This document shows, piece after piece, positions 9,415 to 58,723 of a DNA stretch of 64,000 nt. Source of the DNA: Mustelus asterias (lineage: Eukaryota); the NCBI RefSeq assembly GCF_964213995.1, contig NW_027590699.1, positions 62,001 through 126,000 on the forward strand, read 5' to 3'. Below the pieces are notes generated by a model. The model searched no databases. It was not told the DNA's origin and was given only the letters and a program-made list of their open reading frames with translations. Within the stretch, counting starts at the first letter, position 1. The number at the start of each line of letters is the position of its first letter. Both the position numbers and the translations under genes were made by a program.

Positions 9415-10089
9415 TCACTCGTGAACTCGCTGGTGTCTCAGCAGCCGGGATGAAACGCTGAAACCCTTCCCACACTGAGAGCAGGTGAATGGCCTCTCCC
9501 CAGTGTGAACTGGCTGATGTGTCCGCAGGGTGGATGACCGAGTGAAGCCCTTCCCACACTGAGAGCAGGTGAATGGTTTCTCCCCTGTGTGAACTCGCTG
9601 GTGTGTCCGCAGGTCGGGTAACCGAGTGAATCCCTTCCCACACTGAGAGCAGGTGAACGGCCTCTCCCCAGTGTGAACTCGCTGGTGTGTCTGCAGGCTG
9701 GATAACTGAGTGAATCCCTTCCCACACTGAGAGCAGGTGAATGGCCTCTCCCCAGTGTGAACTCGCTGGTGTGTCTGCAGGCTGGATAACTGAGTGAATC
9801 CCTTCCCACACTGAGAGCAGGTGAATGGCCTCTCCCCAGTGTGAACTCGCTGGTGTGTCCGCAGGTGGGATGACTGAATGAATCCCTTCCCACATTGAGA
9901 GCAGGTGAATGGTCTCTCCCCAGTGTGAACTCGTTGGTGTGTCCGTAAGCTGGAGAACTGATTAAATCCCTTCTCACACTGAGGGCAGATGAACAGCCTC
10001 TCCCCAGTGTGGCTGCGCCGATGAGCTTCCAGCAGACATGGGGCTCTGTATCCCTTCCCACAGTCCCCACATTTCCATGGTTTCTCCAT
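9415..10089 (-). CDS. C2H2 zinc-finger protein, 8 fingers, no effector domain seen (ZNF-A paralog 1)
   Basis: MEKPWKC start in ACCATGG context, 8 CxxC...HxxxH units with TGERPF/TGEKPF-type linkers, uninterrupted ORF. Confidence 0.85.
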
Positions 10090-10571
10090 GGTGCAGGTTT
10101 CCTTGCCTCACTCTTGGGTGGACAATCAGTTGAAACTTCGTCCACACACAGGACAAGATTACAGTCTCTACCCGCTGTGAATGGTGTGATATTTATTCAG
10201 ACTGTGTAACTGGTTAAAGCTCTTTAGTCAGTGCATTGGAACACTCTCACTCAAGTGTGGCAGTGTGTTGATGCTTTTTCACTCACACTGACATTTCAAA
10301 TCTTTTCAAATCGACAGACTGGACAATCATTTCTCCTTCTGGATTCAAAGTCCGATGATATTGAGGTCCCAAGGAACACGATTCTGTCACGCCGAGACAT
10401 GACGTTTGAGATTTCGGCCTGTGATTCCTCTTTCAATATCCTGAAAATGAGTTTCCAAAAGTCATCAGTGTCAGTACAGGATAGAAATTCAGAACAATTT
10501 CTATGGAACATTCTTTCCTCTCTCATTCCCCAAAAGCTGTAAATCTCCATCCCACACACTCTCTCCCCATT

Positions 10572-10760
10572 CTCAGCAGGTCTGGCAGCACCTGGATGGA
10601 GAGAAAAGAACTGATGTTTCAGAGCTTTGACAAAGGGTCATTTCGTCAAGAAACATCAGCTCTTTTCTCTCCTTACAGATGCTGCTAGACCTGCTGAGAT
10701 TTTCCAGCATTTTCTCCCTTGGCTTCAGACGCCAGCATCCGCAGTAATTTGCTTTTATAA
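10572..10760. mobile_element. Fold-back fragment of a second, probably Penelope-like, repeat family
   Basis: Inverted arms TCTCAGCAGGTCTGGCAGCA...TGATGTTTC / GAAACATCAGC...GACCTGCTGAGA. Related copies are at ~26900-27065, 43070-43165, 57460-57648 and 63200-63365. Confidence 0.55.
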
Positions 10761-11960
10761 GGCTACAGATACCTCCTCCCAAGTAACGAGCGTGTGCCCA
10801 AGACATCACCACTTGTTTCCCTTATTTCTTTAGCCCCCATGGTGCTCTCCGCAGTAAACACAGAGGAGAAGTATTCATTAAAAATCTCACCCATCTCCTG
10901 TAGCTCCACACACAGATGGCCATACTGATTTTTAAGGGGATCTATTCTCTCTCTAGCCACCGTCTTACTCTTAATATAGCTATAGAACCTCTTGGAATTT
11001 TCTTTAATCTTACCTGCCAGATCCATATCATACCCTCTTTTTGTCCTCCTGATTTCCCTCCTCAGTATTTTCTTACACTTTTTATAGTCAGAGTGATTCA
11101 CTTGTCCCCGATTGCCTAAACCCAATGTCTGCTTCCTTCTTTTACCTGACCAGAGCCTCAATGTCCCTTGTCTGCCAGAGATCCTTAAATTTACCATTCT
11201 TTCCCTTCATCTTAACAGGAATATACTGCCCCTGGATTCTTGATATCACACTTTTAAAACCTCCCATTTGCCAGTCATTCCTTTCCCTTCAAACAAACTC
11301 ACCTAATCGACATCTGCTAGATCCTGCCTAATGCCCACAAAAGTGGCCCTGCTCCAGTTTAGGGCCTTGACCTGTGGACCTGTCCTATCTTTTTCCTGAA
11401 CTATTTTGAAACTATTGGTGCTCCCAATAGTGCTCCCTGACTGACACTTCAGTCACTTGCTCCACCTCATTTCTTAACTGTCTAATAGAAAGTGAGTCCA
11501 GGAATTGATAATGAAAAATAAGGAGCTGGGAGATGAATTGAACAAGTATTTTGCCTCGGTGTTCACAATAGAGGTTACAGTTAAAACTCAGAAACAGCTG
11601 GAAATCAGAAAACAGAAGTGTGGGATGAACTCTGAAAAAGCACAATTCCCAGGGAAGTGGTCCTCAGCAAACTGTTGGAGCTGTGGGCTGATGAGTCCTC
11701 GGGTCCTGCTGGGCTTCATTCTCGGGTCTTAACAGAGTGAGATCGTTGATGTGTTGTTCAATTTTCTAAAATTCCCCATCGGGAATTGGATAAAGGGAAA
11801 CCGGTGGATGTGCTGTACTCAGATTTCCAGAAGACATTTGATGAGGTGCCACATCAAAGGTTATTGCAGCAAATAAAAGTTCATGCTGTGGGGATAACAT
11901 ATTGGCGTGGATAGAAGATTGGCTAACAGCAAACAGTGGGCAGAAATGGATCATTTTCTG
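10760..11960. mobile_element. Old CR1 LINE fragments (minus ~10760-11440, plus ~11500-11960)
   Basis: Peptides KENSKRFYSYIKSK, IFNEYFSSVFT and LNKYFASVFT. Confidence 0.75.
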
Positions 11961-12169
11961 GTTCGAGAGAGCGAGAAACCTGGACCAACCTTTCCAGAGT
12001 CTGCACCCTCACTGGATTCACTTCCTTTCTCTTCAGTTGCTGCAAGTCCCCAATTTCCCCCAGAATGAGAAAAGAAATGGAAAGGGGGTTGAAGAGAAAG
12101 TGTTTTACTCACAGATGTTTGAGACAGGAGGAAGTTTGAGTCTGTCTGAAGATCAATCTTCATTCACAC

Positions 12170-12570
12170 AAAGCCCACACTCTGATTGGCTGGAAGACCA
12201 GAGTCCTTCCGGTCCTCCAACTCTTCCCATTGGTCAACACCTCAGCATGAAGATCAGAGGGTGGGTTCTCCCCCGCACATGCGCAGCTTCCCCTCTCCCT
12301 CGCACATGTGTAGTCCTGGGCCGGGGGGAGGGAGAGCTCACTGAGCGGCTTCTCGCTCTTGCTGGAGCCATCAGCCGGTTGCCTGGAAACCTTGGTTCAA
12401 GGAGGTGTAGGGGGAGGGGAACAATGGGTGGGGGCGGGGCTCCTGGGTCCGCGCGCCCGGGCCTGAGAACTGGAACCCGGAGACGTCACCGCGAAGCAGA
12501 GTGATTCCTATTGGCTGATTCAGGCAGGACACTATTGTGACGTCACAATGCGGAAGTTGTCCAATGAGCT
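12170..12570. promoter_or_regulatory. CpG-rich promoter-like cassette upstream of ZNF-A paralog 1
   Basis: Several CCAAT/ATTGG boxes, GC box GGGGCGGGG, NRF1-like CGCACATGCGCA, and the perfect palindrome ATTGTGACGTCACAAT (CRE core) at 12534-12549. Confidence 0.6.
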
Positions 12571-12818
12571 TCAGAGTGAAACTCCCTCCTCTGTTCAACA
12601 TCTGGGAGGAAATCAATGTTTTCCCCTTTCCATTTCTTTTCTCATTCTGGGGGAAGTTGGGGACTTGCAGCAACTGAAGGAAATGAAGTGAATTCGGTCT
12701 GTATATTCCACACATTTTTACTCCAGTAATGTAGACATTTATCTGTCTGGCATCCTGCATGGAAATTTTCAGCTCTCTGCATCCAGGGCAAGAAGCAGTG
12801 AGCATGGATCTGTCAATC

Positions 12819-13205
12819 ACACATGAGGACGGCCTCAACCGGGATCTTGGGTTCATGTCACACTATCTGTAACCCCCACGACTTGCCTGGGCTTGCAAAA
12901 TCTCACTAACTGTCCTGGCTGGATACAATACACATCTCTTTAACCTGTGCTTAACCCTCTCTCCACTCACATTGTCTGTACCTTTAAGACTTGATTACGT
13001 TTAAAGACTCGTATTCCAACCATTATCTTGTAAATTGAGTTTGTGTCTTTATATGCCCTGTTTGTGAACAGAACTCCCACTCACCTGATGAAGGGGCAGT
13101 GCTCTGAAAGCTTGTGGCTTGTGCTACCAAATAAACCTGTTGGATTTTAACCTGGTGTTGTGAGATTACTTACTGTGCTTACCCCAGTCCAACGCCGGCA
13201 CATCT
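12819..13205 (+). mobile_element. Penelope-like element 3' end (GIY-YIG C-terminus plus pseudo-LTR)
   Basis: 12819-12872 encodes THEDGLNRDLGFMSHYL*, resembling the end of PLE endonuclease ORFs. It is followed by a UTR, a hammerhead motif, AATAAA and the CCTGTTGGA(C/T)TTTAACCTGGTGTTGT repeat found about 8 times in the window. Confidence 0.75.
13081..13116 (+). ncRNA. Minimal type-I hammerhead ribozyme motif (PLE-associated)
   Basis: CAC-CTGATGA-A-GGGGC-AGT-GCTCT-GAAA-GC-TT-GTG. Confidence 0.65.
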
Positions 13206-13357
13206 TTGGACTGTGGAAGGAAAACCGGAACATCCGGAAGAAACCCACACAGACACGGGGAGAATGTAGAAACTCTGCACAGACAGTGACCCGAGGCTGG
13301 AATTGAACCCGGGTCCCTGGCGCTGTTAGGCAGCTGCACTAACCACTGTGCCACCGG
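13200..13357 (-). mobile_element. HE1-like SINE 5' part
   Basis: GGTGGCACAGTGGTTAGTGCAGCTGCC...GGGTTCAATTCCAG head on the minus strand. Confidence 0.8.
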
Positions 13358-13412
13358 GCCACATGTCAGTGCCATCGCCCGACTCCAGCCCAGTCTCAGC
13401 TCATCTGGAACC

Positions 13413-13603
13413 CTCACCCATTCCATTGTGACCTCACACCCTCACCCATTCCATTGTGACGTCACACCCTCACCCATTCCATTGTGATGTCACACCCTCA
13501 CCCATTCCATGGTGACGTCACACCCTCACCCATTCCATTGTGACGTCACACCCTCACCCATTCCATTGTGACGTCACACCCTCAGCCATTCCATTGTGAC
13601 GTC
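13413..13603. repeat. 28-bp minisatellite (~6.8 units) built around a CRE palindrome
   Basis: The unit is CTCACCCATTCCATTGTGACGTCACACC. Four units keep a perfect TGACGTCA. Confidence 0.92.
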
Positions 13604-13959
13604 GGGGCTTCACTCTCCGATCACAATCCCTGCCGGCCTCCCACATGCAGCCTCAATGGCGGCAGTCAGCCCGGGTCTAACACTACAAGCTGCCGCTCCA
13701 TTTGGTACAAAGGGGGGGAACCGGGAAGTTCATTTCCGGGGTTTGGGTTTGAACAACATGTTTACAAAGCCTCTCGACCCACCCGCCACATTTATCATTC
13801 CCCGCACGCCGCCCTCTACCTCGTATTGATCTCGCTTCCAAACTAAAACCGGCCGTCCGTCGCCATTACCCGCAGTGATGTGGAGATGCCGGCGTTGGAC
13901 TGGGGTAAACACAGCAACAAGTCAAACAACACCAGGTTAAAGTCCAACAGTTTATCTGG

Positions 13960-14182
13960 TTCACCCGCACTGCGCATGCTTCAGGTCCCGCCCCTCATTC
14001 ATTCCGATTGGTTGGAGGACCAGCCGCTCCCATTCGGTCCTCCAGTCCCGCCCCTCATTCACTCCGATTGGTTGGAGGACCAGCCGCTCCCGTTCGGTCC
14101 CCCAGCCCCCACCCCTCTTCCTATTGGTCCGGAGCTGCCGTCAATCAGTCCCCGGGCATTGTGATGTGGAGCATGCGCAGTG
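13960..14182 (+). promoter_or_regulatory. ZNF promoter cassette (NRF1-like, GC box, CCAAT boxes, TGATTGAC)
   Basis: ACTGCGCATGCT...CCCGCCCCTCATTC..GATTGGTTGGAGGACCAGCCGCTCC (x2)...ATTGGTCCGGAGCTGCCGTCAATCA...GCATGCGCAG. Homologues are at 20010-20150, 32060-32195, 32625-32775 and 46175-46315. Confidence 0.65.
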
Positions 14183-15168
14183 TCATTGCTGTCCTTGGCG
14201 CTTGTTTGTCCCGGAGAAGCGGAGTCAGCGTTAGGCGGTGGCTGGGAGGATTTGGAAACACTTTGTGGATCCGCAAACCCTTCAGAATCATTGTCAGCTC
14301 CCTGGTTTGCAGCTGCGGGGCTTCTCCCTCCCTCCCTCCCGGGAACAGGCCCAGGTTAACGGCCCCATCCTGGCTCAGCCACTGGAGGATGGTTCACATC
14401 AGAGGATGGGGGAGGGGGACAATAAATAAGAGGTTACACTTTGGCCTCAAATCAATGAGGACTCTGATCTCTGGGAAGGAAGGAAACCCTGGGAGGTGGG
14501 CGGGGAGGATTCACAAACACCCGCTGGAGGCCCCAACACCCCCAATAAGACCCATTGGTTTTATTGTCAGTCTGCAGACAGGAGCTGGAGAACTGAATCC
14601 AGACCGAGGAGAGGGAGGGAGAAAACTGGGAGTGGAGGAAAGAAATGGTGAGATGGGTTTGGATTTCAGCCCAGGGAGGAGGGAGAGTGTGTGGGACGGG
14701 GATTTACTGATTTGGGGGAACAAGAAAGGAAAAAATGTTCCAGAGAAACTAGAATTGTCTGTTCAGAGTTTGTATCGTGTTCTGACAGTGATGACTTTTC
14801 TAAACTGTTTTTACAGGATATTGGAAGTGAAAGATTGGCAGACAGAAAACTCAAACCGGACATCACATCTGACAAAGTCATTCAGTTCCTTCGGAGCTGA
14901 ATATCATCGGTCTTTGAATATAGAAAGAGAAATATTTGTCTGTTCTGCCTGTGGGCAAATAAATTAAACATCAGTATGACCGGAAAAGCATCGAGACAAA
15001 CACACACCCGAGTGAGAGTGTTCCAGTGAACTGAATGTGGAAAGAGCTTTAACCAGTTACACAGCCTGAAAAAACATCACAGTTCACAGCAGGGTGAAAC
15101 TACGTGTATGTTGTGTGTGTGGATGTGGCTTGAACTGATCATCCAACCTGGAGAAACACAAGGGCACC

Positions 15169-16315
15169 ATGGAGAAACCGTGGAAATGTGTGGAGTGCGG
15201 GAAAGGATTCGGTTTCCCATCACAACTGGAAGTTCATCGGCGCAGTCACACTGGGGAGAGACCGTTCACCTGCTCTGTTTGTGGGAAGGGATTCACCCAT
15301 TCATACAACCTTCTGACTCACCGACGGGTTCACACTGGGGAGAGGCCGTTCACCTGCCCTGTGTGTGGGAAGGGATTCACTCGCTCATCCCACATTGTGA
15401 CACACCAACTTGTTCACACAGATGAGAGAATGTTTACATGTTCTGACTGTGAGAAGAGTTTTAAATGCAAAAAAGATCTGCTGACGCACCAACGTATTCA
15501 CACTGGGGAGAGACCATTCACCTGCTCTGTGTGGGAAAGGATTCATTCAGTCATCCCACCTGCAGACACATCAACTTGTTCACTCTGATAACAAACTTTT
15601 TAATTGTTCCCACTGTGCGAAGAGCTTTAAAAACAAAAAGGATCTGCTGACGCACCAATATACTCACACTGGGGAGAGGCCATTCACCTGCTGTGTGTGT
15701 GGGAAGGGATTCAGCCGTCCACCTGCCCTATTGAACCACCAGAGAATTCACACTGGGGAGAGGCCCTTCACCTGCTCAGACTGTGGGAAGGGATTCATTA
15801 ATTCATCCAACCTTCTGATACACCAGCAGCTCCATACAGGGGATCGACCGTTCACCTGCTCTGAATGTGGGAAGAGATTCACCCGTTCATACAACCTTCT
15901 GACACACCAGCAGGTTCACAGTGAGGAGATGCCATTCACTTGCTCCGTGTGTGGGAAGGGATTCACTCGTTCATCCAACCTATTGAATCACCAGCGAGTT
16001 CACACTGGGGAGAGGCCGTTCACCTGCTCCATGTGTGGGAAGGGATTCAGTCAGTCATCCAACCTGCTGACACATCAGAGAGTTCACAGTGGGGAGAGGC
16101 CATTTACCTGCTCTGTCTGTGGGAAGGGATTTTCTCATTTATCTTATCTTCTGAAACACCAGCGAGTTCACACTGGGGAGAGGCCATTCACCTGTAATGT
16201 CTGTGGAAAGGGATTTATTCAGTCATCCCACCTGCTAACACACCGGCGAGTTCACAAGGGACTGCAAGGTTTGGATTCTACACTTATTGATGCTGTTAAT
16301 CATATCCAGGTCTGA
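15169..16315 (+). pseudogene. 13-finger C2H2 ZNF with a single 2-bp frameshift (ZNF-B left copy)
   Basis: ORFs 15169..15588 and 15695..16315 join into one array if GT is restored in the GT run at ~15530. The right-arm paralog has TCTGTGTGTGGG there. This could be a real lesion or an assembly indel. Confidence 0.75.
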
Positions 16316-19300
16316 ATCATCTTCACTCTGACTTTTTTCTTCTGTTGAGGTTTGATATTCTGAATAAATGTGAAATAGACATTTGATTGAACCATTGTTG
16401 TAGATTTTTGTCTTTTCCATTTGAGTGTTTAACGTCACCAGGCTGGAGCTCAGAAAGGGCAATCTGAGGGAGGGTCATACAGTAGGAACAGAACTTCATT
16501 CTTGACCCAGTCCTTCAGGGTCACGCTGAGAGGGACAAACAGCACTTTGGTCTTTTTCGTCACTTTTCACTGACAGCAAAGTCCCCGTGTGGGTGAATCC
16601 TGAGGTGTGTGAGAAATGTGTCCCAGTCGTTCTTTTCCATGGTTCCGAGCTCCCAGACACAGAACAGAAGCTCCTTTACAACTGTGTTTAGAGTCAGGAA
16701 GAACAATGGTGAATGCGGGAAACGTGCTGTCAAAGATTGGTGTAAAACTGGGATCTATTCCTGACTGAGAGTGAAACGGCAGGTTTAGGTTTCCAGACTT
16801 AGAATGAAGAAAAGTGTAAAACATTTTAATGTGTGTGTGTGTCAGTCCTGGTTTATTGAACAGAAACTGGCTTCAAATAAATTGGTGGAAGTCTGCATTA
16901 AAGTAGCAGCTGGAGAAGTTCAAAGGAGCCTGTTAACTGCTGGGACAATGAGACAACAATTTGATTCCCAGATAGAGAAGGAGCTGCAGTGTGTGTCCAA
17001 GAATTCTCAGTTTTGTTGATGTGTGCTTCCCATACACTATCCTTTTAAATAAACCTCACTCCTATCAGCCTTTAACCATTATAAACAGAACAGAGAGAAG
17101 CTGAGCAGCAACAGAGCCCTGACTGACCATTTAAGAATGAGTGATGTGTTCAGCTGAAGTTTCCTGTTGGTAGTTTTCTGGGTGATCTCCTTATTTTGAT
17201 CATTCTCAGTGACCCCTGGGTGTGAACCTGCTCTCCTCTCTTTCAGACATTCACTCACTCAACATCTCCTCTCTCTCAGAAACTCAATCACTTAACCTCT
17301 CTCATCTCTCTAACACTCACTGAACATCTCTCTCTCTCTCTCTCTCCAGGCATTCACTCACACGTTACCTTCCATCTCTCTTACATTCTAACCTCGCTCC
17401 TCTCTCATTCACTTAACCTCTTCCCTCTCAGATACTGTGTTCATCACTTAATGTCTCTCTATCTTTCTTTCAAACACTCACTCATTTAACCTTCCTATTT
17501 CAGATCTGCTTAAACTTATTCATTGTTTTCTCTCTCTCGTTACCTCTCTCTGAAAAAGCACAAACACACTTCATCTCTCTTCACTGTCTGAGAAAACATC
17601 TAATTGATGGAGATTCAATCCTCTCTGTTTCTCTCTCCCACTTCCTCTGACAGGCCCTGACTCACTTTAAATCTCCTCTTTTCTAATAACCCTCTTTGGG
17701 AAAACTCATTTGTTCTCTAATTCCTCCTCATTTCTCCCAGTGATGACCCTCAGTCCATCTCCCAATTCAGTGAATGTGTTAAAAATCCAAATAATCTCCT
17801 TTCTTTATTGTTTAAAATGGGAATGGAGCTGAATGTAATGCTGAGACCGGCAGCAATCTGTGTGGTTGTTCTTGATGCTGTCAGAGTGAGTTCACCCTCA
17901 CAGGAAGGAAGACTGTTCACGGTGATAACATCAAACTGACGCCGGCTGTTTCATTCTCAGGTAACACAACTTCCTGTTTCTCTGCTGCCGGCTCCAAACC
18001 TCACATCTCACTTCTGAGCAGAAAATAAATCCAGGGACCACAATCTGGTGAGAACATCTGTCAATGCGGCCGATATCTGTCCACAGAGTCAGGGCAGAGT
18101 CACACAGGTCACATTGTGGTGACATTTACAAATGAACCAGTTATTTCTGTTCAGAGTTTCCATTCGCAGATAAAACCAGCTGTGTCTGTGGATCAGTTAC
18201 TGAGTTCCCTCTGTTCCCTGTAGCTGGGAACTGATAGCCTGCTCCCTTATATTTTATATCATTCTCTCTGTATTGCTTGTTTCCTCTATTTCTCAGCTTT
18301 TATCTTTGACCTTCCTCATCTTTCTGCTTTTTAAAATCTTCCTCAATTTTTCTCTCAGTCTTTCCGTCTCTCTCTTCCTCTGTAACTTTCTCAGGCTCTG
18401 TGTGTTCCTATTTAATCGACATGTTCAAAATCATGAAGAGTTTCTGATTGATTATAGAAGGAAAAACAGGGAGAGAAGCAGAAAAACCCAGCAGATCCGG
18501 CGGCATCTGTTGAGAGAGAAACAGTTAACATTTTGAGTCCATATAATTCTTCAGGGCAGGAAAAACATGGGTTATCCATCTTAGATTAGGGAATGTGATG
18601 GGGCGATTTAATAGAGATGTTTCAAATGACAAATGATTTATGATAGTTTCTCTCCATTGACACTATCTCCCAGGAGCAGGAAGTCTGTCGATGGTGAGAA
18701 TCTATTTCCCAGGTGCAGGAGGGTCTGTAAGCAGAGGATACAGAGATTTAATATAATTGACAACAGAACTGGAGGGGGTGATAAGGAAAATTTTTTACAC
18801 AATAACTGGATATGATCTGGAATGCACAAACTGACAGGTGCTAGAAGCAGGTTTAATAGCAACTTTCAAAGGGAATTGGATAAATACTTGCAGAAGGTAA
18901 ATTGGCAGAGTTATGGTCAATGGGATTAATTGGACAGTTCACTCATCTTTGTGACATTCTGAATGTTTCTCTCCTGAGGTTTTAATGTTTGATCTTTTCA
19001 GTCACAATGTGTCTCAAACAGAAGATTAAACCATTGGGTTTGATGAGCCTTCAGATCTGTTTCCTGTGTGTAACTTGAGAACTGCAGATAACCATGAGAA
19101 GGAACTGATTATTATCAGTTCCTCGAACAGATACACCTCAGATATCAGAAATCCCTGGAGTTCCCCATGTCCTCATTATTCTCCCCTTGAGTATAACAGC
19201 TCTCAGTCAGGCCGAGTCAGTCGCATGTGCCTCTGTCATGATGTTTCCACTTGTATTTTATCACTCACCTCCCAGTGACACTCACCATAACACAGACACC

Positions 19301-19778
19301 TTAAAATATCATTGTTCCCTTACACTTTGTCCTCCTATTATAATCAAATGTTTGTTGGGCCTCTTGTCTCCCTTAATGTCAGATTATCTGCAGTTAAAAT
19401 GACCTCAGAGACACTGAAACCGACTTCAGTGATTATTATACCAGACTCCAATCAGCCCCAGGAGCTGCAGTTGTAAAATACAGTAAGAGTTTTAACAACA
19501 CCAGGTTAAAGTACAGCAGAAATACAGCAGAATGTAAAATACAGCAGAATTGGAATAACAGCCAGGTTATTGTCTGATACTGACAGTGGCAGAGTAACAC
19601 ACACCGGAATCTAAATACATTATATCAATGGACCATGACTCACTCACACTATCAAATGAAACCTAAACTTTGGTTCTGGTGCACGTGATACTGACTGTAT
19701 TACCATTACATTGGATCTAATGCTGTGTTTACTAACAGACTGCAACGTGACTCTTATTATTTGAACAAACATTGTATC

Positions 19779-19960
19779 TGTTACACTCAGAGTAAGTCAG
19801 TGCTTTGCTGTGTTGTCTCTGTGCTCCATCCCCACTCTGATTGTATTGGAGCCTGTGTGTGTCACTGTTACACTCAGAGTAAGTCAGTGCTTTGCTGTGT
19901 TGTCTCTGTGCTCCATCCCCACTCTGATTGTATTGGAGCCTGTGTGTGTCATTGTTACAC
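19779..19960. repeat. 87-bp tandem repeat, 2 units
   Basis: TGTTACACTCAGAGTAAGTCAGTGCTTTG... starts at 19779 and 19866. Confidence 0.9.
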
Positions 19961-20009
19961 TGAGACTCTGTCACTGTGATTATTGGACAAACAGCAAGTT
20001 ACCGTCACA

Positions 20010-20430: not shown

Positions 20431-20597
20431 GAGGCGCTTGTTCCCCAGTGTTCAGAATGGAGACAACTTGTCCATCAAACTGCATCAACCCTCTGAGTCC
20501 CAATATCTTATTGATGAGGCAGAGCAGTGACAGAGAAGGAAAAAGAAAGGGAAAGTAAAACAGAAAATGCTGGAAAATCTCAGCAGATTTGATAGCA

Positions 20598-26252: not shown

Positions 26253-26346
26253 TTCCAGGGGTTGGATTCTGCTGTTATTGTTTCTGCTCTCAATTCCATC
26301 CAGGACTGCATTTTGTTCATTCTCACAGTTGGTCAATGGGGAGGAT

Positions 26347-46315: not shown

Positions 46316-46356
46316 GTAACTTGCTGCTTGTCCAATAACAAGTGACAGAGTCTCAG

Positions 46357-46620: not shown

Positions 46621-49600
46621 CAAATACAATGTTTGTTCAAATAATAAGTCACGTTGCAGTATGTTAGTGAACACAGCATTTGATCCAATGTAATGGTAAT
46701 ACAGTCAGTATCTAGTGCACCATAACCAAAGTTTAGGCTTTATTTGATGGTGTGAGTGAGTCATGGTCTATTGATATAATGTATTTAGATTCCAGTGTGT
46801 GTTACTCTGCCACTGTCAGTATCAGACAATAACCTGTCTGTTATTCCAATTCTGCTGTATTTTACAACTGCAGCTCCTGGGGCTGATTGGAGTCTGGTAT
46901 AATAATCACAAAGGTCGGTTTCAGTGTCTCTGAGGTCATTTAACTGCAGGTAATCTGACATTAAGGGAGACAAGAGGCCCAACAAACATTTGATTACAAT
47001 AGGAGAACAAGGTGTAAGGGAGCAATGATATTTTAAGGTGTCTGTGTTATGGTGAGTGATAAAATCGAAGTGGAAACATCATGACAGATACATGTGACTG
47101 ACTCGGCCTGACTGAGAGCTGTTATACTCGAGGCGAGACTAATGAGGACATGGGGAACTCCAGGGATTTCTGATATCTGAGGTGTGTCTGTTAGAGGAAC
47201 TAAAAATAATCAGTTCCTTCTCATGGTTATCTGCAGTTCTCAAGTTACACAGACACACAGGAAACAGGTCTGATAGCTCATCAAACCCAACGTTTTAATA
47301 TTCAGTTTGAGACACATTGTGACTGAAAAGATCAAATATTAAAACCTTAGGGGAGAAACATTCAGAATGTCACAAAGATGAGTGAACTGTCCAATTAATC
47401 CCATTCACCATAACTCTGCCAATTTACCTTCTGCAAGTATTTATCCAATTCCCTTTGAAAGTTAATATTAAACCTGCTTCTAGCACCTGTCAGTTTGTGC
47501 ATTCCAGATCATATCAAGTTATTGTGTAAAAAATTCTCCTTATCACCCCTTCCAGTTCCGTTGTTAATTATATTAAATCTCTGTGTCCTCTGCTTACAGA
47601 CCCTCCTGCACCTGGGAAATAGATTCTCTCCATCGACAGACTTCCTGCTCCTGGGAAATAGTGTCAATGGAGAGAAACTATCATAAATCATTTGTCATTT
47701 TAAACATCTCTATTAAATCACCCCATCACATTCCCTAATCTAAGATGGAAAGCCCATGTTTTTCCTGCCCTCAAGAATTATATGGACTCAAAATGTTAAC
47801 TGTTTCTCTCTGAACAGATGCCGCCGGACCTGCCGGGTTTTTCTGCTTTTCTCCCTGCTTTTCCTTCGAAAATCAATCAGAAACTCTTCATGATTTTGAA
47901 CATCTTGATTAAATAGGAACACACAGAGCCTGAGAAAGATACAGAGGGGGAGAGAGAGACGGAAAGACTGAGAGAAAAATTGAGGAAGAATTTAAAAAGC
48001 AGAAAGATGAGGTGGTCAAAAATAAAAGTTGAGAAACAGAAGAAACAAGCAATACAGAGAGAACAATCTAGAATAAAAGGGAGCAGGCTATCAGTTCCCA
48101 GCTGTGGGGAGCAGAGGGAACTCAGTAACTGATCCACAGACACAGCTGGTTATATCTGCGAATGGAAACTCTGAACAGAAATAACAGGCTCATTTGTAAA
48201 TGTCACCACAATGTGATCTGTGTGACTCTGCCCTGACTCTGTGGACAGATATAGGTCACATTGACAGATGTTCTCACCAGATTGTGGTCCCTGGATTTAT
48301 TTTCTGCTCAGAAGTGAGATGTGAGGTTTGGAACCGGCAGCAGAGAAACAGGAAGTTGTGTTACCTGAGAATGAAACAGCCGGTGTCAGTTTGATGTTAT
48401 CACCGTGAACAGTCTTCCTTCCTGTGAGGCTGAACTCACTCTGACAGCATCAAGAACAACCACACAGATTGCTGCCAGTCTCAGCATTACATTCACCTCC
48501 ATTCCCATTTTAAACAATAAAGAAAGGAGATTATTTGGACTTTTAACACATTCACTGAATTGGGAGATGGACTGAGGGTCATCACTGGGAGAAGTGAGGA
48601 GGAATTAGAGAACAAATGAGTTTTCCCAAAGAGGGTTATTAGAAAAGAGGAGATTTAAAGTGAGTCAGGGCCTGTCAGAGGAAGTGGGAGAGAGAAACAG
48701 AGAGGATTGAATCTCCATCAATTAAATGTTTTCTCAGACAGCGAAGAGAGATGAAGTTTGTTTGTGCTTTTTCAGAGAGAGGTAATGAGAGAGAGAAAAG
48801 AATGAATAAGTTTGAGCAGATCTGAAATAGGAAGGTTAAATGAGTGAGTGTTTGAAAGAAAGATAGAGAGACATTAAGTGATGAACACAGTATCTGAGAG
48901 GAGAGAGGTTAAGTAAATGTGAGAGAGGAACGAGGTTAGAATGTAAGAGAGATGGAAGGTGAGGTGTGAGTGAATGCCTGGAGAGAGAGAGAGAGAGAGA
49001 GAGATGTTCAGTGAGTGTGAGAGAGATGTTGAGCGATTGAGTTTCTGAGAGAGAGGAGATGTTAAGTGAATGATTGTCTAAAAGAGAGGAGAGGAGGTTC
49101 ACACCCAGGGGTCACTGAGAATGATCAAAATAAGGAGATCACCCAGAAAACTACCAACAGGAAACTTCAGCTGAACACATCACTCATTCTTAAATGATCA
49201 GTCAGGGCTCTGATGCTGCTCAGCTTCTCTCTGTTCTGTTTATAATGGTTAAAGGCTGATAGGAGTGAGGTTTATTTAAAAGGATAGTGTATGGGAAGCA
49301 CACATCAACAAAACTGAGAATTCTTGGACACACACTGCAGCTCCTTCTCTATCTGGGAATCAAATTGTTGTCTCATTGTCCCAGCAGTTAACAGGCTCCT
49401 TTGAACGTCTCCAGCTCCTCCTTTAATGCAGACTTCAACCAATTTATTTGAAGCCAGTTTCTGTTCAATAAACCAGGACTGACACACACACATTAAAATG
49501 TTTTACACTTTTTTTCATTTTTAGTCTGGAAACCTAAACCTGCCGTTTCACTCTCAGTCAGGAATAGATCCCAGTTTTACACCAATCTTTGACAGCACGT

Positions 49601-50006
49601 TTCCAGCATTCACCGTTGTTCTTCCTGACTCTAAACACAGTTGTAAAGGAGCTTCTGTTCCGGGTCTAGGAGCTCTGAACCATGGAAAAGAACGACTGGG
49701 ACACATTTCTTACACACCTCAGGATTCACCCACACGGGGACTTTGCTGTCAGTGAAAAGTGACGAAAAAGAACAAAGTGCTGTTTGTCCCTCTCAGCGAG
49801 ACCCTGAAGGACTGGGTCAAGAATGAAGTTCTGTTCCTACTGTATGATCCTCCCTCAGATTGCCCTTTCTGAGCTCCAGCCTCGTGACGTTAAACACTCA
49901 AATGGAAAAGACAAAAATCTACAACAATGATTCAATCAAATGTCTATTTCACATTTATTCAGAATATCAAACCTCAACAGAGGAAAAAAGTCAGAGAGAA
50001 CATGAT

Positions 50007-51328
50007 TCAGACCTGGATATGATTAACAGCATCGATAAGTGTAGAATCCAAACCTTGCAGTCGTTTGTGAACTTGCTGGTGTGTTAGCAGGTTAGAAATC
50101 ATAGAAATCATAGAAACCCTACAGTGCAGAAGGAGGCCATTCAGCCCATCGAGTCTGCACCGACCACAATCCCAACCAGGCCCTACCCCCACATATTTAC
50201 CCGCTAATCCCACTAACCTACGCATCTCAGGGGCAATTTTTTTAACCTGGCCAATCAACCTAACCCGCACATCTTTGGACTGTGAGAGGAAACCGGAGCA
50301 CCCGGAGGAAACCCACGCAGACACAGGGAGAACGTGCAAACTCCACACAGACAGTGACCCGAGCCGGGAATCGAACCCGGGACCCTGGAGCTGTGAAGCA
50401 GCAGTGCTAACCACTGTGCTACCGTGCTACCGTTAGATGACTGAATAAATCCCTTTCCACAGACGTTACATGTGAACGGCCTCTCCCCAGTGTGAACTCA
50501 CTGGTGGTTCAATAGGTTGGGTGAAAGAGTGAATCCCTTCCCACATACGGAGCAAGTGAATGGCCCTTCCTCACTGTGAACCTGCTGGTGTGTCAGAAGG
50601 TTGTATGAACGGGTGAATCCCTTCCCACATTCAGAGCAGGTGAACGGTCGATCCCCTGTATGGAGCTGCTGGTGTATCAGAAGGTTGGATGAATTAATGA
50701 ATCCCTTCCCAGGGATTCTGAGCAGGTGAAGGGCCTCTCCCCAGTGTGAATTCTCTGGTGGTTCAGTTGGGCAGATGGGCGGCTGAATCCCTTCCCCCAC
50801 ACACAGCAGGTGAATGGCCTCTCCCCAGTGTGAGTATATTGGTGCATTAACAGATCCTTTTTGTTTTTAAAGCCCTTCTCACAGTCAGAACAATTAAAAA
50901 GTTTGTTATCAGAGTGAACAAGTTGATGTGTCTGCAGGTGGGATGACTGAATGAATCCTTTCCCACACACAGAGCAGGTGAACGGTCTCTCCCCAGTGTG
51001 AATGCGTTGGTGTGTCAGCAGATCTTTTTTGCATTTAAAACTCTTCTCAGTCAGAACATGGAAACAGTCTCTCATCAGTGTGAACAAGTTGGTGTGTCAC
51101 AATGTGGGATGAGCGAGTGAATCCCTTCCCACACACAGGGCAGGTGAACAGCCTCTCCCCAGTGTGAACCCGTTGGTGAGTCAGAAGGTTGTATGAATGG
51201 GTGAATCCCTTCCCACAAACGGAGGAGGTGAACGGTCTCTCCCCAGTGTGACTACAGCAATGAACTTCCAGTTGTGATGGGAAACCGAATCCTTTCCCGC
51301 ACTCCACACATTTCCACGGTTTCTCCAT
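50007..51328 (-). pseudogene. ZNF-B right-arm pseudogene
   Basis: Frameshifts (~51050, ~50712), C>S and C>W changes, CGA>TGA at 50498-50500, two fingers missing, a SINE in the last finger, and the promoter deleted. Confidence 0.9.
50097..50431 (-). mobile_element. Young HE1-like SINE inside a ZNF exon
   Basis: TSD GTTAGA at 50091-50096 and 50432-50437. Confidence 0.93.
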
Positions 51329-52169
51329 GGTGCTGGTGCCCTTGTGTTTCTCCAGGTTGGATGATCAGTTGAAACCTCGTCCACACACACAACATACATG
51401 TAGTTTCACCCTGCTGTGAATTGTGTGATGTTCTTTCAGACTGTTAAAGATCTTTCCTCAGTCAGTTCACTGGAACACTCTCAATCGGGTGTGTGTTTGT
51501 TTCACTGCTTTTACGGTCACACTGATGTTTAAAATCTTTGCCGACAGACAGAAGAGTCAAACATTTCTCCTCCCATATTCAAAGACCAATGATATTCAGC
51601 TCCGAATGAACAAAATGACTTTGCGAGTCATGATGTTCGGTTTGAGTTTTCTGTCTGCCAATCCTCCACTTCCAATATCCTGTAAAAAAAATTTGGAAAA
51701 GTCATCAGCGTCAGTCCGGGATAGAAATTCTGAACAGACAATTCTAGTTTCTCTGGGACATTTTTTCCTCTCTTGTTCCCCCAAATCTGTAAATCCCTGT
51801 CCCACACACTCTCCCTCCTCCCTGGGCTGAAATCCAAACCCATCTCAATGGGTGAGGGTGTGACGTCACAATGGAATGGGTGAGGGTTCCAGATGAGCTG
51901 AGACAGGGCTGGAGTCGGGCGATGGCACTGACATGTGGCCCGGTGGCACAGTGGTTAGTGCAGCTGCCTAACAGCGCCAGGGACCCGGGTTCAATTCCAG
52001 CCTCGGGTCGCTGTGAGGAATTTGCACATTCTCCCTGTGTCTGTGTGGGTTTTCTCCAGGTGCTCCGGTTTCCTCCCACAGTCTAAAGATCTGCAGGTTA
52101 GACGGATTGGCCATGATAAATTAAATTAACCCTTGGCATCAGCAGGATTGTATTCTGTAACTTGATTTT

Positions 52170-52984
52170 AGAACATAGAGAACATAGAAAAACAATGGAA
52201 TACATAGACATAGAACAGTACAGCACAGAACAGGCCCTTCGGCCCACGATGTTGTGCCGAGCTTTATCTGAAACCAAGATCAAGCTATCCCACTCCCTAT
52301 CATCCTGGTGTGCTCCATGTGTCTATCCAATAACCGCTTAAATGTTCCTAAAGTGTCTGACTCCACTATCACTGCAGGCAGTCCATTCCACACCACAACC
52401 ACTCTCTGCGTAAAGAACCTACCTCTGATATCCTTCCTATATCTCCCACCACGAACCCTATAGTTATGCCCCCTTGTAATAGCTCCATCCACCCGAGGAA
52501 ATAGTCTTTGAACGTTCACTCTATCTATCCCCTTCATCATTTTATAAACCTCTATTAAGTCCCCCCTCAGCCTCCTCCGCTCCAGAGAGAACAGCCCCAC
52601 CTCCCTCAACCTTTCCTCATAAGACCTACCCTCCAAACCAGGCAGCATCCTGGTAAATCTCCTCTGCACTCTTTCCAGCGCTTCCACATCCTTCTTATAG
52701 TGAGCTGACCAGAACTGCACACAATATTCCAAATGTGGTCTCACCAAGGTTCTGTACAGTTGCAGCATAACCCTACGGCTCTTAAACTCCAACCCCCTGT
52801 TAATAAAAGCTAACACACTATCGGCCTTCTTCACAGCTCTATCCACTTGAGTGGCAACCTTTAGAGATCTGTGGATATGGACCCCAAGATCTCTCTGTTC
52901 CTCCACAGTCTTCAGAACCCTACCTTTGACCCTGTAATCCACATTTAAATTAGTCCTACCAAAATGAATCACCTCACAATTATC
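52170..52984 (-). mobile_element. CR1 LINE 3' ~0.8 kb
   Basis: ORF 52280..53011 (NCEVIHFG...RVVVVWNGLP) and a TAGAACA-type tail. Confidence 0.92.
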
Positions 52985-53196
52985 ATGGAATGGGTGAGGG
53001 TGTGACGTCACAATGGAATGGGTGAGGGTGTGACGTCACAATGGAATGGGTGAGGGTGTGACGTCACAATGGAATGGGTGAGGGTGTGACGTCACAATGG
53101 AATGGGTGAGGGTGTGACGTCACAATGGAATGGGTGAGGGTGTGACGTCACAATGGAATGGGTGTGGGTGTGACGTCAGAATGGAATGGGTGAGGG
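52985..53196. repeat. 28-bp CRE minisatellite, 7 perfect TGACGTCA
   Basis: TGACGTCA at 53003, 53031, 53059, 53087, 53115, 53143 and 53171. Confidence 0.93.
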
Positions 53197-53244
53197 TTCC
53201 AGATGAGCTGAGACTGGGCTGGAGTCGGGCGATGGCACTGACAT

Positions 53245-53545
53245 GTGGCCCGGTGGCACAGTGGTTAGTGCAGCTGCTTAACAGCACCAGGGACCCGGGT
53301 TCAATTCCAGCCTCGGGTCGCTGTCTGTGCAGAGTTTCTACATTCTCCCCGTGTCTGTGTGGGTTTCCTCCGGGTGTTCCGGTTTCCTTCCACAGTCCAA
53401 AGATGTGCTGGTTAGACGGATTGGCCATCATAAATTGCCACTTGGTATCAGGGGGATTAACAGGTAAATATGTGGATAAGGCCTGGATGGGATTGTTGTC
53501 GGTGCAGGCTCGATGGGCTGAATGGCCTCCTTCTACACTGTATTT
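53245..53545 (+). mobile_element. HE1-like SINE (partial direct copy at ~51935-52120)
   Basis: GGTGGCACAGTGGTTAG head, V-domain and GGCTGAATGGCCTCC tail. Confidence 0.85.
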
Positions 53546-53957
53546 TATTATTCATTCTTATAAATTAATTACTTCTTTGAATGAAGGTGGTCTTGATGAT
53601 GATGTGGACGTGGCTGGAAGCTCATCTTGGGATGAACTATTTCACCCTGGTTGTGAACAGCCTGGTTCAGCCTCAGACAGTTGCCAGGAGGAGAGATAAA
53701 GTTGGCGAGGGAGTGGAGTTTGTAGTGGGGACTGAACACAATGGGTTCAGTCTTCCCAGTATTTATATGAAATAAATTTCTGTTCTTTCAGTACTGGATG
53801 TCAGACAAGTCCGGATGGTGTGTGGGTTGGAGAGGAACTTGGAGCTGATGCTGTTCACAGGGTTTGGAAATTCTGTCAAAGTTCCTGTTGAGTTGTAGAT
53901 GTATAAAATCTCTCTCCTCACTTCCGGCCTCCTACTTCCCTCTGTTTCCACTCAGAG

Positions 53958-54340
53958 TGTGGAGATGCCGGCGTTGAACTGGGGTAAGCACAGAAAGAAG
54001 TCTCACAACACCAGGTTAAAGTCCAACAGGTTTATTTGGTAGCACAAGCCTTTCGGAGCGCTGCTCCTTCATCAGGTGAGTGGGAGTTCTGTTCACAAAC
54101 AGGGCACAAAGACACAAACTCAATTTACAAGATAATGGTTGGAATGCGAGTCTTTACAGGAAATCAAATCTTAAAGGTACAGACAATGTGAGTGGAGAGA
54201 GGGTTAAGCACAGGTTAAATAGATGTGTATTGTCTCCAGCCAGGACAGTTAGTGAGATTTTGCAAGCCCAGGCAAGTCGTGGGGGTTACAGATCGTGTGA
54301 CATGAACCCAAGATCCCAGTTGAGGCCGTCCTCATGTGTG
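53958..54340 (-). mobile_element. PLE 3' end (mirror of 12819-13205); hammerhead has a deletion after GAAAG
   Basis: The minus strand reads CACCTGATGAAGGAGCAGCGCTCCGAAAGGCTTGTG. Confidence 0.75.
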
Positions 54341-54589
54341 ATTGACAGATCCATGCTCACTGCTTCCTGCCCTGGACGCAGAGTGCTGAAACTTTCCATG
54401 CAGGCGGCCAGACAGATAAATGTCTACATTACTGGAGTAAAAATGTGTGGAATATACAGACCGAATTCACTTCATTCCCTTCAGTTGCTGCAAGTCCCCA
54501 ATTTCCCCCAGAATGAGAAAAGAAATGGAAAGGGGGAAACATTGATTTCCTCCCAGATGTTGTCCAGAGGAGGAAGTTTCACGCTGAAG

Positions 54590-54990
54590 CTCATTGGACC
54601 ACATCCACATTGTGACGTCACAATAGAGCCCTGCCTGAATCAGCCAATAGGAGTCACTCTGCTCCGCGGTGATGTCTCCGGGTTCCAGTGCGCAGGCCCG
54701 GGCGCGCGGACCCGGGAGCCCCGCCCCCACCCATTGTTCCCCCTCCCCTTACACCTCCTTGAGTCAAGGTTTCCAGGCAACCGGCTGATGGCTCCGGCCA
54801 GAACGAGAAGCTGCTCGGTGATCTCCCCCTCCCCCTGGCCCGGGACTGCGCATGTGCGGGGGAGAGGGAAAGCTGCGCATGTGCGGGGGAGAACCCACCC
54901 TCTGATCGTCATGCTGAGGTGTTGACCAATGGGAAGAGTTGGAGGACCGGAAGGATTCTGGTCTTCCGGCCAATCTGAGCGCAGGCTTTG
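54590..54990. promoter_or_regulatory. CpG-rich promoter-like cassette (mirror of 12170-12570)
   Basis: ATTGTGACGTCACAAT, several CCAAT boxes, CCCCGCCCCC, TGCGCATGTGCG x2. Confidence 0.6.
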
Positions 54991-55719
54991 TGTGAATGAA
55001 GATTGATCTTCAGACTGACTGAAACTTCCTCCTGTCGCTAATATCTGTGAGTAACACACTTTCTTTTCTCCCCCTTTCCATTTCTTTTCTCATTCTGGGG
55101 GAAATTGGGGACTTGCAGCATCTGAAGGGAAAGGAAGTGAATCCAGGGAGGGTGCAGACTCTGGAAAGGTTGGCCCAGGTCTCTCTCTCTCTCTCTTAAA
55201 CCAGAAAATGATCCATTTCTGCCCACTGTTTGCTGTTTGCCAATCTTCTATCCACGCCAATATGTCATCCCCGCAGCATGAATTTTTATTTGCTGCAATA
55301 ACCTTTGATGTGGCACCTCATCAAATGTCTTCTGGAAATCTAAGTACAGCGCATCCACTGGTTTCCCTTTATCCAATTCCCGATGGGGAATTTTAGAAAA
55401 TTGACCGACACATCAACTATCTCACTCTGTTAAGACCCGAGAATGAAGCCCAGCAGGACCCGAGGACTCATCAGCCCACAGCTCCAACAGTTTGCTGAGG
55501 ACCACTTCCCTGGGAATTGTGCTTTTTCAGAGTTCATCCCACACTTCTGTTTTCTGATTTCCAGTTGTTTCTGAGTTTTAACTGTATCCTCTATTGTGAA
55601 CACCGAGGCAAAATACTTGTTCAATTCATCTCCCAGCTCCTTATTTTTCATTATCAATTCCTGGACTCACTTTCTATTAAACAGTTAAGAAATGAGGTAG
55701 AGCAAGTGACTGAAGTGTC

Positions 55720-57460
55720 AGTCGGGGAGCACTATTGGGAGCACCAATAGTTTCAAAATAGTTCTGGAAAAAGATAAGACAGGTCCACAGATCAAGGCCC
55801 TAAACTGGAGCAGGGCCACTTTTGTGGGCATTAGGCAGGATCTAGCAGATGTCGATTAGGTGAGTTTGTTTGAAGGGAAAGGAATGACTGGCAAATGGGA
55901 GGTTTTAACAGTGTGATAAAGAGTCCAGGGGCAGTATATTCCTGTCAGGATGAAGGGAAAGAATGGTAAATTTAGGGATCCCTGGCTGACAAGGGACATT
56001 GAGGCTCTGGTCAGGTAAAAGAAGGAAGCAGACATTGGGTTTAGACAATCGGGGACAAGTGAATCACTCGATGTCTCTTAAAAGTGTAAGAGAATACTTA
56101 AGAGGGTATGATATGGATCTGGCAGGTAAAGTTAAAGAAAATTTAACTTTAACACAGTCCAAAGATGTGTGGGTTAGGTTGATTGGCCATGCTAAAATTG
56201 CCCCTTAGTGTCCTGAGATGCGTAGGTTAGAGGAATTAGCGGGTAAATATGTCGGGATATGGGGGTAGGGCCTGGGTGGGATTGTGGTCGGTGCAGATTC
56301 GATGGGCCAAATGGCCTCTTTCTGCACTGTATGGATTCTATGAAAATCCCAAGAGGTTCTATCGCGATATTAAGAGTAAAAGGGTGGCTAGAGAGAGAGA
56401 GAATAGGTCCCCTTAAAAATCAGCATGGCTATCTGAGGATGGAGTCACAGGAGATGGGTGCGATTTTTAATGAATATTTCTCCTTGGTGTTTCCTGAGGA
56501 GAACATGATGGATGCTGAAGAAATAAGAGAAAGAAGCTGTGATGTCTTGGACCACATGCATATTACTCGGGAGGAGGTATCTGCAGCCTTAAAGTGCATT
56601 AAGGTGGATAAATCCCCTGGGTCTGATCAATTATATCTTCAGATCTTGTGGGAGGCTCAGGAAGGAATTACAGAGCCCCTTGCAGAGATATTTGTTTCAT
56701 CTCTTTCTCCTGGTGAAGTTCTGGAAGAATAGAACATGTTAATGTTGTTCTGTTGTTTAAGAAGCGTAGCAAAGAGAAGCCTGAGGATTATAGGCCGGTA
56801 GTCTGACATCAGTGGTGGGTAAGTTACTGGAGGGGATTGTGAAGGACAGAATCTACCAACATTTGGATTCTGACGGTGTGATTAGGGATAGTCAGCACCG
56901 CTTTGTGCACGGGAAGTCATGTCTGACAAATCTTTTATTGTTTTCCGAAGAGGTAATCCAGAGGATGGATGAGCAGGGCCACTTTTGTGGGCATTAGGCA
57001 GGATCGAGCAGATGTTGATTAGGTGAGTTTGTTTGAAGGGAAAGGAATGACTGGCAAATGGAAGGTTTTAAAAGTGTGATATCAAGAATCCAGGGCAGTA
57101 TATTCCTGTTAAGATGCAGGGAAAGAATGGTAAATTTAGGGATCTCTGGCAGACAAGGGACATTGAGGCTCTGGTCAGGTAAAAGAAGGAAGCATTCATT
57201 GGGTTTAAAGATTAAAGAAAATTCCAAGAGGTTCTATAGCTATATTAAGAGTAAAAGGGTGGCTAGAGAGAGAATAGATCCCCTTAAAAATCAGTATGGC
57301 CATCTGTGTGTGGAGCCACAGGAGATGGGTGAGATTTTTAATGAATACTTCTCCTCTGTGTTTACTGCGGAGAGCACCATGGGTTCGAAAGAAATAAGGG
57401 AAACAAGTGGTGATGTCTTGGGCACACGCATGTTACTTGGGAGGAGGTATCTGCAGCCTT
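55720..57460 (+). mobile_element. Old CR1 fragments with an internal direct duplication (~55808-56045 and ~56971-57207) and a SINE 3' part (~56150-56345)
   Basis: GAGCAGGGCCACTTTTGTGGGCATTAGGCAGG occurs twice, and ORFs 56259.., 56812.. and 57058.. give CR1 peptides. Confidence 0.75.
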
Positions 57461-58132
57461 ATAAAAGCAAATTACTGCGGATGCTGGAATCTGAAACCAA
57501 GAGAGAAAATGCTGGAAAATCTCAGCAGGTCTGGCAGCATCTGTAAGGAGAGAAAAGAGCTGATGTTTCTTGTCTCGATGACCCTTTGTCAAAGCTCTGA
57601 AACATCAGTTCTTTTCTCTCCATACAGATGCTGCCAGACCTGCTGAGAATGGGGAGAGAGTGTGTGGGATGGAGATTGACAGCTTTTGGGGAATGAGAGA
57701 GGAAAGAATGTTCCATAGAAATTGTCTGTTCTGAATTTCTATCCTGTACTGACACTGATGACTTTTGTAAACTCATTTTACAGGATATTGAAAGAGGAAT
57801 CACAGGCTGAAATCTCAAACGTCACGTCTAGATCTGACAGTCATATTCCTTGGGAGCTGAATATCATCGGACTTTGAATCTAGAAGGAGAAATGATTGTC
57901 CGGTCTGTTGATTTGAAAAGATTTCAAACATCAGTGTGACTGGAAAAGCAGCAACACACTGCCACACTCGAGTGAGTGTGTTCCAGTGCACTGACTAAAG
58001 AGCTTTAACCAGTTACACAGTCTGAATAAACATCACAACATTCACAGCGGGGAGAGACTGTACTCGTGTTCTGTGTGTGGACAAAGTTTCAACTAATTGT
58101 CCACCCAAGAGAGCGGCAAGGACACCTGCACC

Positions 58133-58723
58133 ATGGAGAAACCATGGAAGTGTGCGGACTGTGGGAAAAGATACGGATACCCATCTGAGCTCGAAGCGCA
58201 TTGGCGCAGCCATACGGGGGAGAGGCCGTTCACCTGCTCTCAGTGTGGGGAGGGATTCAGTGATTCATCCGGCCAGCAAAGACACCAGCGAGTTCACACT
58301 GGGGAGAGACCGTTCACCTGCTCTCAGTGTGGGCAGGGATTCACTCAGTCATCCAACCTGCGGACTCACCAGCGAGTTCACACTGGGGACAGACCATTCA
58401 CTTGTTCTCAGTGTGGGAAGGGATTCAGTAATTCATCAGGCCTGCGAAGACACCAGCGAGTTCACACTGGGGAGAGACCATTTACCTGCTCTCAGTGTGG
58501 GAATGGATTCACTCAGTTATCCAGTCTGCGGACACACGAGCGAGTTCACACTGGGGAGAAACCATTTATGTGCTCTCAGTGTGGGAAGGGATTCACTGAC
58601 CTCTCAAACCTCTGCACACACCAGCGAGTTCACACTGGGGAGAGGCCATTCACCTGCTCTGTGTGTGGGAAGAGATTCAGAGTTTCATCCCACCTGCTGA
58701 GACACCAACAAGTTCACGAGTGA
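58133..58723 (+). CDS. C2H2 zinc-finger protein, 7 fingers (ZNF-A paralog 3)
   Basis: ACCATGGAGAAACC start and 7 intact fingers. Positional mirror of 9415-10089. Confidence 0.85.

Follow-up and report, generated by a model that had tools for sequence, protein, structure and literature searches.

Three finger-only C2H2 arrays in a Mustelus asterias zinc-finger cluster: codon divergence at base-contact positions and comparison with FiNZ-ZNF, KRAB-ZNF and PRDM9

The FiNZ-ZNF genes of cyprinids and the KRAB-ZNF clusters of tetrapods are clustered, lineage-specific families of tandem C2H2 zinc-finger (ZNF) genes: The fingers of each gene share a single exon, many copies are broken, and in young clades the residues that touch the bases are under positive selection (PMC10547256). 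For the zebrafish FiNZ-ZNF genes, positive selection is reported in four of seven clades, and knockdown leads to the derepression of transposons (PMC10547256). The PRDM9 minisatellite consists of 84-bp units and features identical finger copies and a variable finger number (PMC2794550, PMC5519329). In cartilaginous fishes, the KRAB-domain families have been lost (PMC8455134), and the supplement of PMC10547256 gives 475 to 3586 ZNF open reading frames (ORFs) for each of seven chondrichthyan assemblies—3586 for Scyliorhinus canicula and 1851 for Carcharodon. The binding test of that study was carried out without sharks, and the word shark is absent from its main text. Literature searches with thin coverage of subscription journals yielded no study of how ZNF arrays have evolved in sharks. 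The three arrays described here, ZNF-A1 to ZNF-A3, lie in a 64-kb stretch of Mustelus asterias (hereafter the window; positions 62,001 to 126,000 of contig NW_027590699.1, assembly GCF_964213995.1). The window represents a cluster of elasmobranch zinc-finger genes: A six-frame scan reveals nine C2H2 finger arrays amid CR1-type retroelement ORFs.

The type A genes share the above features of the FiNZ-ZNF and KRAB-ZNF clusters and are a young effector-less variant of such rapidly evolving tandem families. They are read here, with moderate confidence, as a young, lineage-restricted subfamily of the elasmobranch tandem C2H2 repertoire, the arrays of which are rebuilt by recombination and conversion and the contact residues of which are under diversifying selection. 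A preliminary description of the same stretch had proposed PRDM9-like arrays with a homogenized backbone and with helices diversifying faster than the neutral flanks. Overall, the feature is real and the selection signal is supported; the argument from the flanks is invalid, and the likeness to PRDM9 was overstated. The arrays and the identical finger pair of A1 are as follows:

9415..10089, minus strand: ZNF-A1 ORF, 224 amino acids, 8 C2H2 fingers, without other domain
9678..9845, minus strand: fingers 4 and 5 of A1, two nucleotide-identical 84-bp units
25494..26252, plus strand: ZNF-A2 ORF, 252 amino acids, 9 fingers, with the largest contact-site signal of the three
58133..58723, plus strand: ZNF-A3 ORF, 196 amino acids, 7 fingers

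Divergence at the base-contact positions

The codon model distinguishes three classes of sites—the contacts −1, +3, and +6, the other helix positions, and the backbone—and was fitted to 17 distinct internal fingers of the three genes. Finger 5 of A1, being equal to finger 4, and the first and last fingers, being of different types, were left out. With a tree built from all sites and a term for CpG transitions, maximum likelihood yields a ratio of nonsynonymous to synonymous rates (dN/dS, omega) of 2.65 at the contacts, 1.27 at the other helix positions, and 0.24 in the backbone (likelihood-ratio test against omega = 1, p = 0.0015). In the other three settings of tree and CpG term, the contact omega amounts to 2.9 to 6.8, with 5.4 to 6.8 for the tree built from the backbone only. 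The CpG term itself is fitted at 2.1 to 3.1. A free rate for the whole helix is fitted at 0.99, and the contact omega still exceeds 1 (p = 0.0105); the observed ratio was reached in one of 600 null simulations on the one tree simulated. The pairwise proportion of nonsynonymous differences (pN) is 0.486 at the contacts and 0.043 in the backbone, where the synonymous proportion (pS) is 0.188. Hence, amino-acid change is concentrated at −1, +3, and +6 and lies above the synonymous rate. A contact divergence no greater than the synonymous one would have spoken against the preliminary description; the contact omega is instead 2.65 to 6.8, against 0.21 to 0.27 in the backbone. A dN/dS above 1 at the contacts together with a constrained backbone is the mark of rapidly evolving tandem C2H2 ZNF genes, and positive selection at contact residues is likewise a trait of PRDM9.

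The description of the helices as hypervariable holds for the positions −1, +3, +6, +1, and +5. It does not hold for +2, which has a pN of 0.110 and carries Ser in 16 of the 18 internal fingers. The broken genes B1 and B2, which face each other across an inverted duplication, provide a near-neutral control:

15169..16315, plus strand: ZNF-B1, with a frameshift after finger 4
about 50432-51328, minus strand: ZNF-B2, broken, mirror of B1

Their contact codons make up 90 of the 839 nt and hold 5 of the 37 differences, which is no excess over what their length predicts (p = 0.59).

Several observations weigh against diversifying selection at the contacts. The positions +1 and +5, which are no contacts, vary as well (pN 0.372 and 0.316). 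Taken gene by gene, the corrected pairwise ratio is 1.25 for A1, 6.1 for A2, and 2.9 for A3, so that A1 alone shows little excess. A direct comparison of the A fingers, with 20 of 65 extra alleles at −1, +3, and +6, against B1 and B2 reaches only p = 0.059. Some contact triplets of ZNF-A recur in older arrays of the window, and import by conversion is therefore possible. The sample comprises three genes, 17 fingers, and one window, and gene conversion breaks the assumption of a single tree, a caution voiced in PMC5519329.

A shared pool of fingers and the comparison with PRDM9

All three A ORFs are open and have complete zinc ligands, and they feature at least five tandem fingers with TGE(K/R)P linkers and clustered paralogs. 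Their finger counts of 8, 9, and 7 and every helix quoted in the preliminary description were recovered. The 18 internal fingers share a mean identity of 85.9% overall—too low for a unit that had been called almost invariant—and of 92.4% over the 20 backbone codons. The five other arrays of the window range between 61 and 77% overall and between 69 and 80% in the backbone, which shows type A to be younger or more homogenized than its neighbors. Ordinary tandem ZNF genes show much less likeness among the fingers of one gene than the A genes do. Synonymous departures number 8 of 105, 7 of 136, and 8 of 78 in the three arrays and amount to 19 to 25% in the four other arrays counted. The units 9678-9761 and 9762-9845 of A1 are identical, as had been noted, and lie within a 117-nt identical run at a period of 84. 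This pair probably reflects a very recent tandem duplication or conversion, with an assembly artefact as another possible source.

The backbone distance is the same within and between the A arrays (permutation p = 0.23), and the helices are slightly more alike within arrays than between them (p = 0.006). The homogenization is partial, subfamily-wide, and not gene-specific, and the internal fingers of the three paralogs belong to a single common pool; their backbone is nearly the same throughout and under purifying selection. The number of fingers shifts by whole 84-bp units, and the two terminal fingers of each array are of types of their own: The first fingers of the A genes are 20 to 30 of 60 backbone nt apart from all other fingers and 3 to 6 from each other, and the last fingers have the helix Val-Ser-Ser-x-Leu-Leu-Arg in common.

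In several respects, ZNF-A resembles PRDM9: 84-bp units, identical finger copies, a variable finger number, distinct terminal fingers, and a diversity focused on the contact residues. In others, the two systems differ. No KRAB, SSXRD, or PR-SET domain was detected in ZNF-A, which is a multigene family with homogenization across paralogs. In PRDM9, fingers are closer within a gene than between genes, which the A backbones are not, as judged by the above permutation. Nor is synonymous homogenization near complete, with departures of 5 to 10% in ZNF-A against 2 of 228 in human PRDM9 (PMC2794550). The DNA diversity is 0.12 to 0.19, compared with 0.079 for human PRDM9 (PMC5519329).

The statistic P of PMC5519329 was taken over the sites −2, −1, +3, and +6, as given in the header of its supplement. 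It amounts to 0.34, 0.38, and 0.32 for the three A arrays with all fingers and to 0.43, 0.51, and 0.39 without the first finger. Human PRDM9 has a P of 0.687, and the complete PRDM9 orthologs in Table 1 of that paper span 0.33 to 1.0. Retrieved proteins of many species with at least four tandem fingers (115 of 124) have a median P of 0.25 and a 95th percentile of 0.35; a Mustelus relative ranks second among them (0.46) and a stingray model third (0.43). Type A, therefore, lies between ordinary ZNF genes and PRDM9, with its homogenization spread over the subfamily, and is, as judged by its sequence, not a relative of PRDM9. A skate protein, P0010 of Rhinoraja longicauda, carries a PR-type domain (PF21549) and homogeneous fingers with a P of 0.39 and is probably a PRDM9 ortholog.

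Gene anatomy, relatives, and genomic setting

The finger exons extend upstream of the ORFs, and the following parts were delimited:

10090..10440, minus strand: 5′ part of the A1 finger exon; decayed fingers, stops in all frames, putative acceptor upstream, presumed 5′ untranslated region, four upstream ATGs
25143..25493, plus strand: 5′ part of the A2 finger exon; decayed fingers, one upstream ATG
57784..58132, plus strand: 5′ part of the A3 finger exon; decayed fingers, one upstream ATG
12107..12420, minus strand: putative non-coding first exon of A1 with splice donor, proposed from the sequence alone; 92% alike in the A3 arm
26346..26750, plus strand: five finger units of an older type behind the A2 stop, joined to A-type 3′ sequence about 92 nt past the stop

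In A1 to A3, B1, B2, and D, the ORF starts with an ATG in the context ACCATGG at a linker reading TMEKP. About 350 nt of exon ahead of this ATG consist of alignable decayed fingers with stops, with a putative acceptor upstream; in gene E, a finger is still open ahead of the corresponding point. The donor region of the putative first exon of A1 recurs upstream of A2 at 23191-23219. A KRAB exon in frame with the fingers is missing, with stops in all frames before the ATG, and an upstream exon such as the FiNZ exon of 28 amino acids, if spliced to the acceptor, could not be read through these stops. No KRAB exon was found, and translation apparently starts within the finger exon, in contrast to FiNZ-ZNF and KRAB-ZNF genes. 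Pfam scans bear out the earlier remark that no KRAB domain is visible: The best 25 families for the three A ORFs are of the zinc-finger type only, without KRAB, SET, SSXRD, or SCAN; 60 upstream peptides of at least 38 amino acids contain none of these four and only a trace of reverse transcriptase; and KRAB and SCAN are absent from the Pfam lists of four chondrichthyan proteins among 59 longer hits.

The decayed upstream fingers can be aligned across seven genes (A1 to A3, B1, B2, C, and D). All three A genes have an upstream ORF of 15 amino acids in common, and a conserved translational control element upstream of their starts is possible. The five units behind the A2 stop may represent a recombination scar. 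The units in this stretch (26253-26750) stay in frame, so that stop loss or read-through would give a 14-unit array.

The best named match to A2 is the Mustelus asterias model P0043 (81%), followed by ray and shark models. Elasmobranch models named zinc finger protein 239-, 271-, or 850-like (Heterodontus, Carcharodon, Scyliorhinus, Mustelus, Amblyraja) resemble ZNF-A in their finger-only make-up and in a first finger of the WK type, which starts with Trp-Lys-Cys; in Heterodontus, Carcharodon, and Amblyraja models, modules are headed by a first finger of the ZNF-A type. They differ in the uniform CSQCG backbone of type A, which is rare among them: It occurs in five fingers from 3 of 274 retrieved proteins, three of these fingers in P0043. 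Such rarity fits a recent, lineage-restricted expansion, though databases hold few shark proteins. Among 15 WK-type first fingers from 10 of 331 retrieved proteins, 14 have Pro at +1, all 15 have an acidic residue at +5, and +3 varies; 14 lack any preceding finger. In C2H2 geometry, the positions +1 and +5 point away from the bases. Since the conservation falls at positions facing away from the bases, it suggests a possible role of the constant first finger as a cap or in protein binding.

The two outer A genes and the B genes are carried by an inverted segmental duplication, the arms of which pair up in several pieces with A1 opposite A3 and B1 opposite B2:

9181..20475: left arm, carrying A1 and B1
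45838..58964: right arm, interrupted by insertions, carrying B2 and A3
11505..11732, plus strand: dead CR1-like fragment in the putative A1 intron, labeled by its likeness to the CR1 ORFs of the window
55430..55657, minus strand: mirror copy of this fragment

The two CR1-like pieces differ at 2 of 228 nt (0.9%) and, as reported earlier, at only 1 of 75 residues. This near-identity had served as the neutral yardstick for the helices, for which it is unsuited. The piece is atypically similar: The remaining intron around it differs between A1 and A3 at 64 of 1414 nt (Fisher p = 0.006 versus the CR1 piece), and 200-nt windows along the arm that bears it diverge by 2.0 to 8.5%. Moreover, the untranslated exon parts of A1 and A3 differ at 57 of 583 nt (9.8%) and the intron at 66 of 1642 (4.0%; p = 8e-7), so that the history of the exons is not that of the flank. 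At the intron end, A1 pairs with A3 (unique sites: 7 in A2, 2 in A1); in the 5′ part of the exon, A2 pairs with A3 (unique sites: 24 in A1, 14 in A2, 8 in A3), and the site patterns of intron and exon differ (p = 0.02). A similar patchwork is seen in B1 and B2, which differ at 40 of 347 nt in the 5′ part and 37 of 839 in the fingers, with the fingers in register. Judging by these patterns, either other members of the family have traded exons with these genes or the flanks have been converted, and the flank is, therefore, no clock for the arrays.

Further finger genes of the window are the following:

33462-34520, plus strand: ZNF gene C, two in-frame stops
35527-36447, plus strand: ZNF gene D, open, 9 fingers
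40919-41644, minus strand: ZNF gene E, open, with a finger kept ahead of the WK-type finger

Young CR1-type ORFs lie on the minus strand at 59061-61955 (964 amino acids open) and 43989-45755 (588 amino acids open); a CR1 tail fused to model P0043 matches the latter at 228 of 229 residues. At 31479-31955 on the plus strand, an intact intronless ORF of 158 amino acids belongs to the ribosomal S17/uS17 family and is presumably RPS11-like; with AATAAA and an A-rich tail behind it and a 29-bp minisatellite ahead of it, it is a retrocopy whose frame is open. A promoter-like unit with ATTGG (CCAAT) boxes recurs at 13985-14117 (in tandem), 20005-20146, 32059-32194, 32658-32777, and 46197-46313, near CpG-rich spots. 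GC-rich ORF fragments at 21640-22669 (plus strand) resemble, by inspection only, the end of ORF2 of L1/Tx1-type retroelements.

Competing explanations and meaning

Under the favored reading, slippage and unequal crossing-over would gain and lose 84-bp units, and ectopic gene conversion would shuttle fingers and exons between paralogs. Purifying selection would keep the fold, and diversifying selection would renew the contact residues of fingers presumed to bind DNA, new specificities being favored. By analogy with other vertebrates, the moving targets are, with about even chances, transposons. Any repression would have to do without KRAB and might rely on occlusion or on a partner; the constant first finger, with its Pro at +1 and acidic residue at +5, is a candidate dock for such a partner. 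A motif for A2 from a recognition code has 6 matches at 3 mismatches, two of them mirror copies, against 2.0 expected, which is too crude to count.

The excess at the contacts could arise without any arms race, from relaxed helices of young finger duplicates, CpG hypermutation (CGG/CAG, CGN/TGN), and short stretches of conversion that bring in helices from older shark ZNF families. The fitted CpG term is in line with this, as are codon pairs for the same residue, which differ by 0.205 in the helix versus 0.126 in the backbone, and contact triplets that ZNF-A has in common with the B, C, and D arrays. According to PMC5120217, new repeats in general experience strongly relaxed as well as positive selection. 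However, omega stays above 1 when CpG transitions are modeled and when the helix is given a rate of its own, and +3, which has no CpG codon in the internal fingers, still carries 8 residues in 18 fingers next to the near-constant Ser at +2. This explanation is considered unlikely.

Alternatively, the A genes could be mostly untranslated or dying copies riding on the segmental duplication, with a selection signal inherited from active relatives elsewhere. B1, B2, and C are indeed broken; A1 has its four upstream ATGs, and its fingers 1, 2, and 7 contain unusual residues; and neither AATAAA nor ATTAAA occurs in the scanned stretch behind A1 or A3. Set against this are the three open frames with all zinc ligands, the low backbone omega, and the starts in a strong Kozak-like context, which make such decay improbable. 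Contigs of four sequencing runs (1020, 5330, 3766, and 14614 contigs; three of the runs presumed to be RNA) have no bearing on expression: None spans the stretch, and the 15 listed of 214 joints include no splice joint. A few of the listed joints swap only the helix of a finger, but at 85% likeness they may stem from other ZNF subfamilies. It is highly improbable that the arrays act, like PRDM9, in meiotic recombination or in centromere conflict, for example by competing for hotspot motifs without an effector of their own: With the first finger set aside, P reaches into the lower part of the range of complete PRDM9 orthologs (PMC5519329), but no PR/SET, KRAB, or SSXRD domain was found, the skate PR-domain protein has a different finger type, and P with all fingers remains low in arrays that are not homogenized gene by gene.

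Other vertebrates already provide well-known cases of young ZNF clades with selection on their contact residues, which limits the surprise of finding such selection here. Cartilaginous fishes have roughly 500 to 3600 tandem zinc-finger ORFs despite the loss of the KRAB-domain families. Sharks might even possess a KRAB-free system for transposon defense or DNA surveillance, in which many finger-only genes take their variable fingers from one conversion-homogenized pool, like a PRDM9-type cassette library distributed across a gene family, and the constant first finger replaces KRAB or FiNZ as the silencing dock—a conjecture rated as quite unlikely. The fast-finger statistic of PRDM9 can be approached in sharks by genes that are not PRDM9. 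The selection signal, the finger-only architecture, and the constant first finger offer handles on the recognition and silencing of mobile DNA outside the KRAB lineage.

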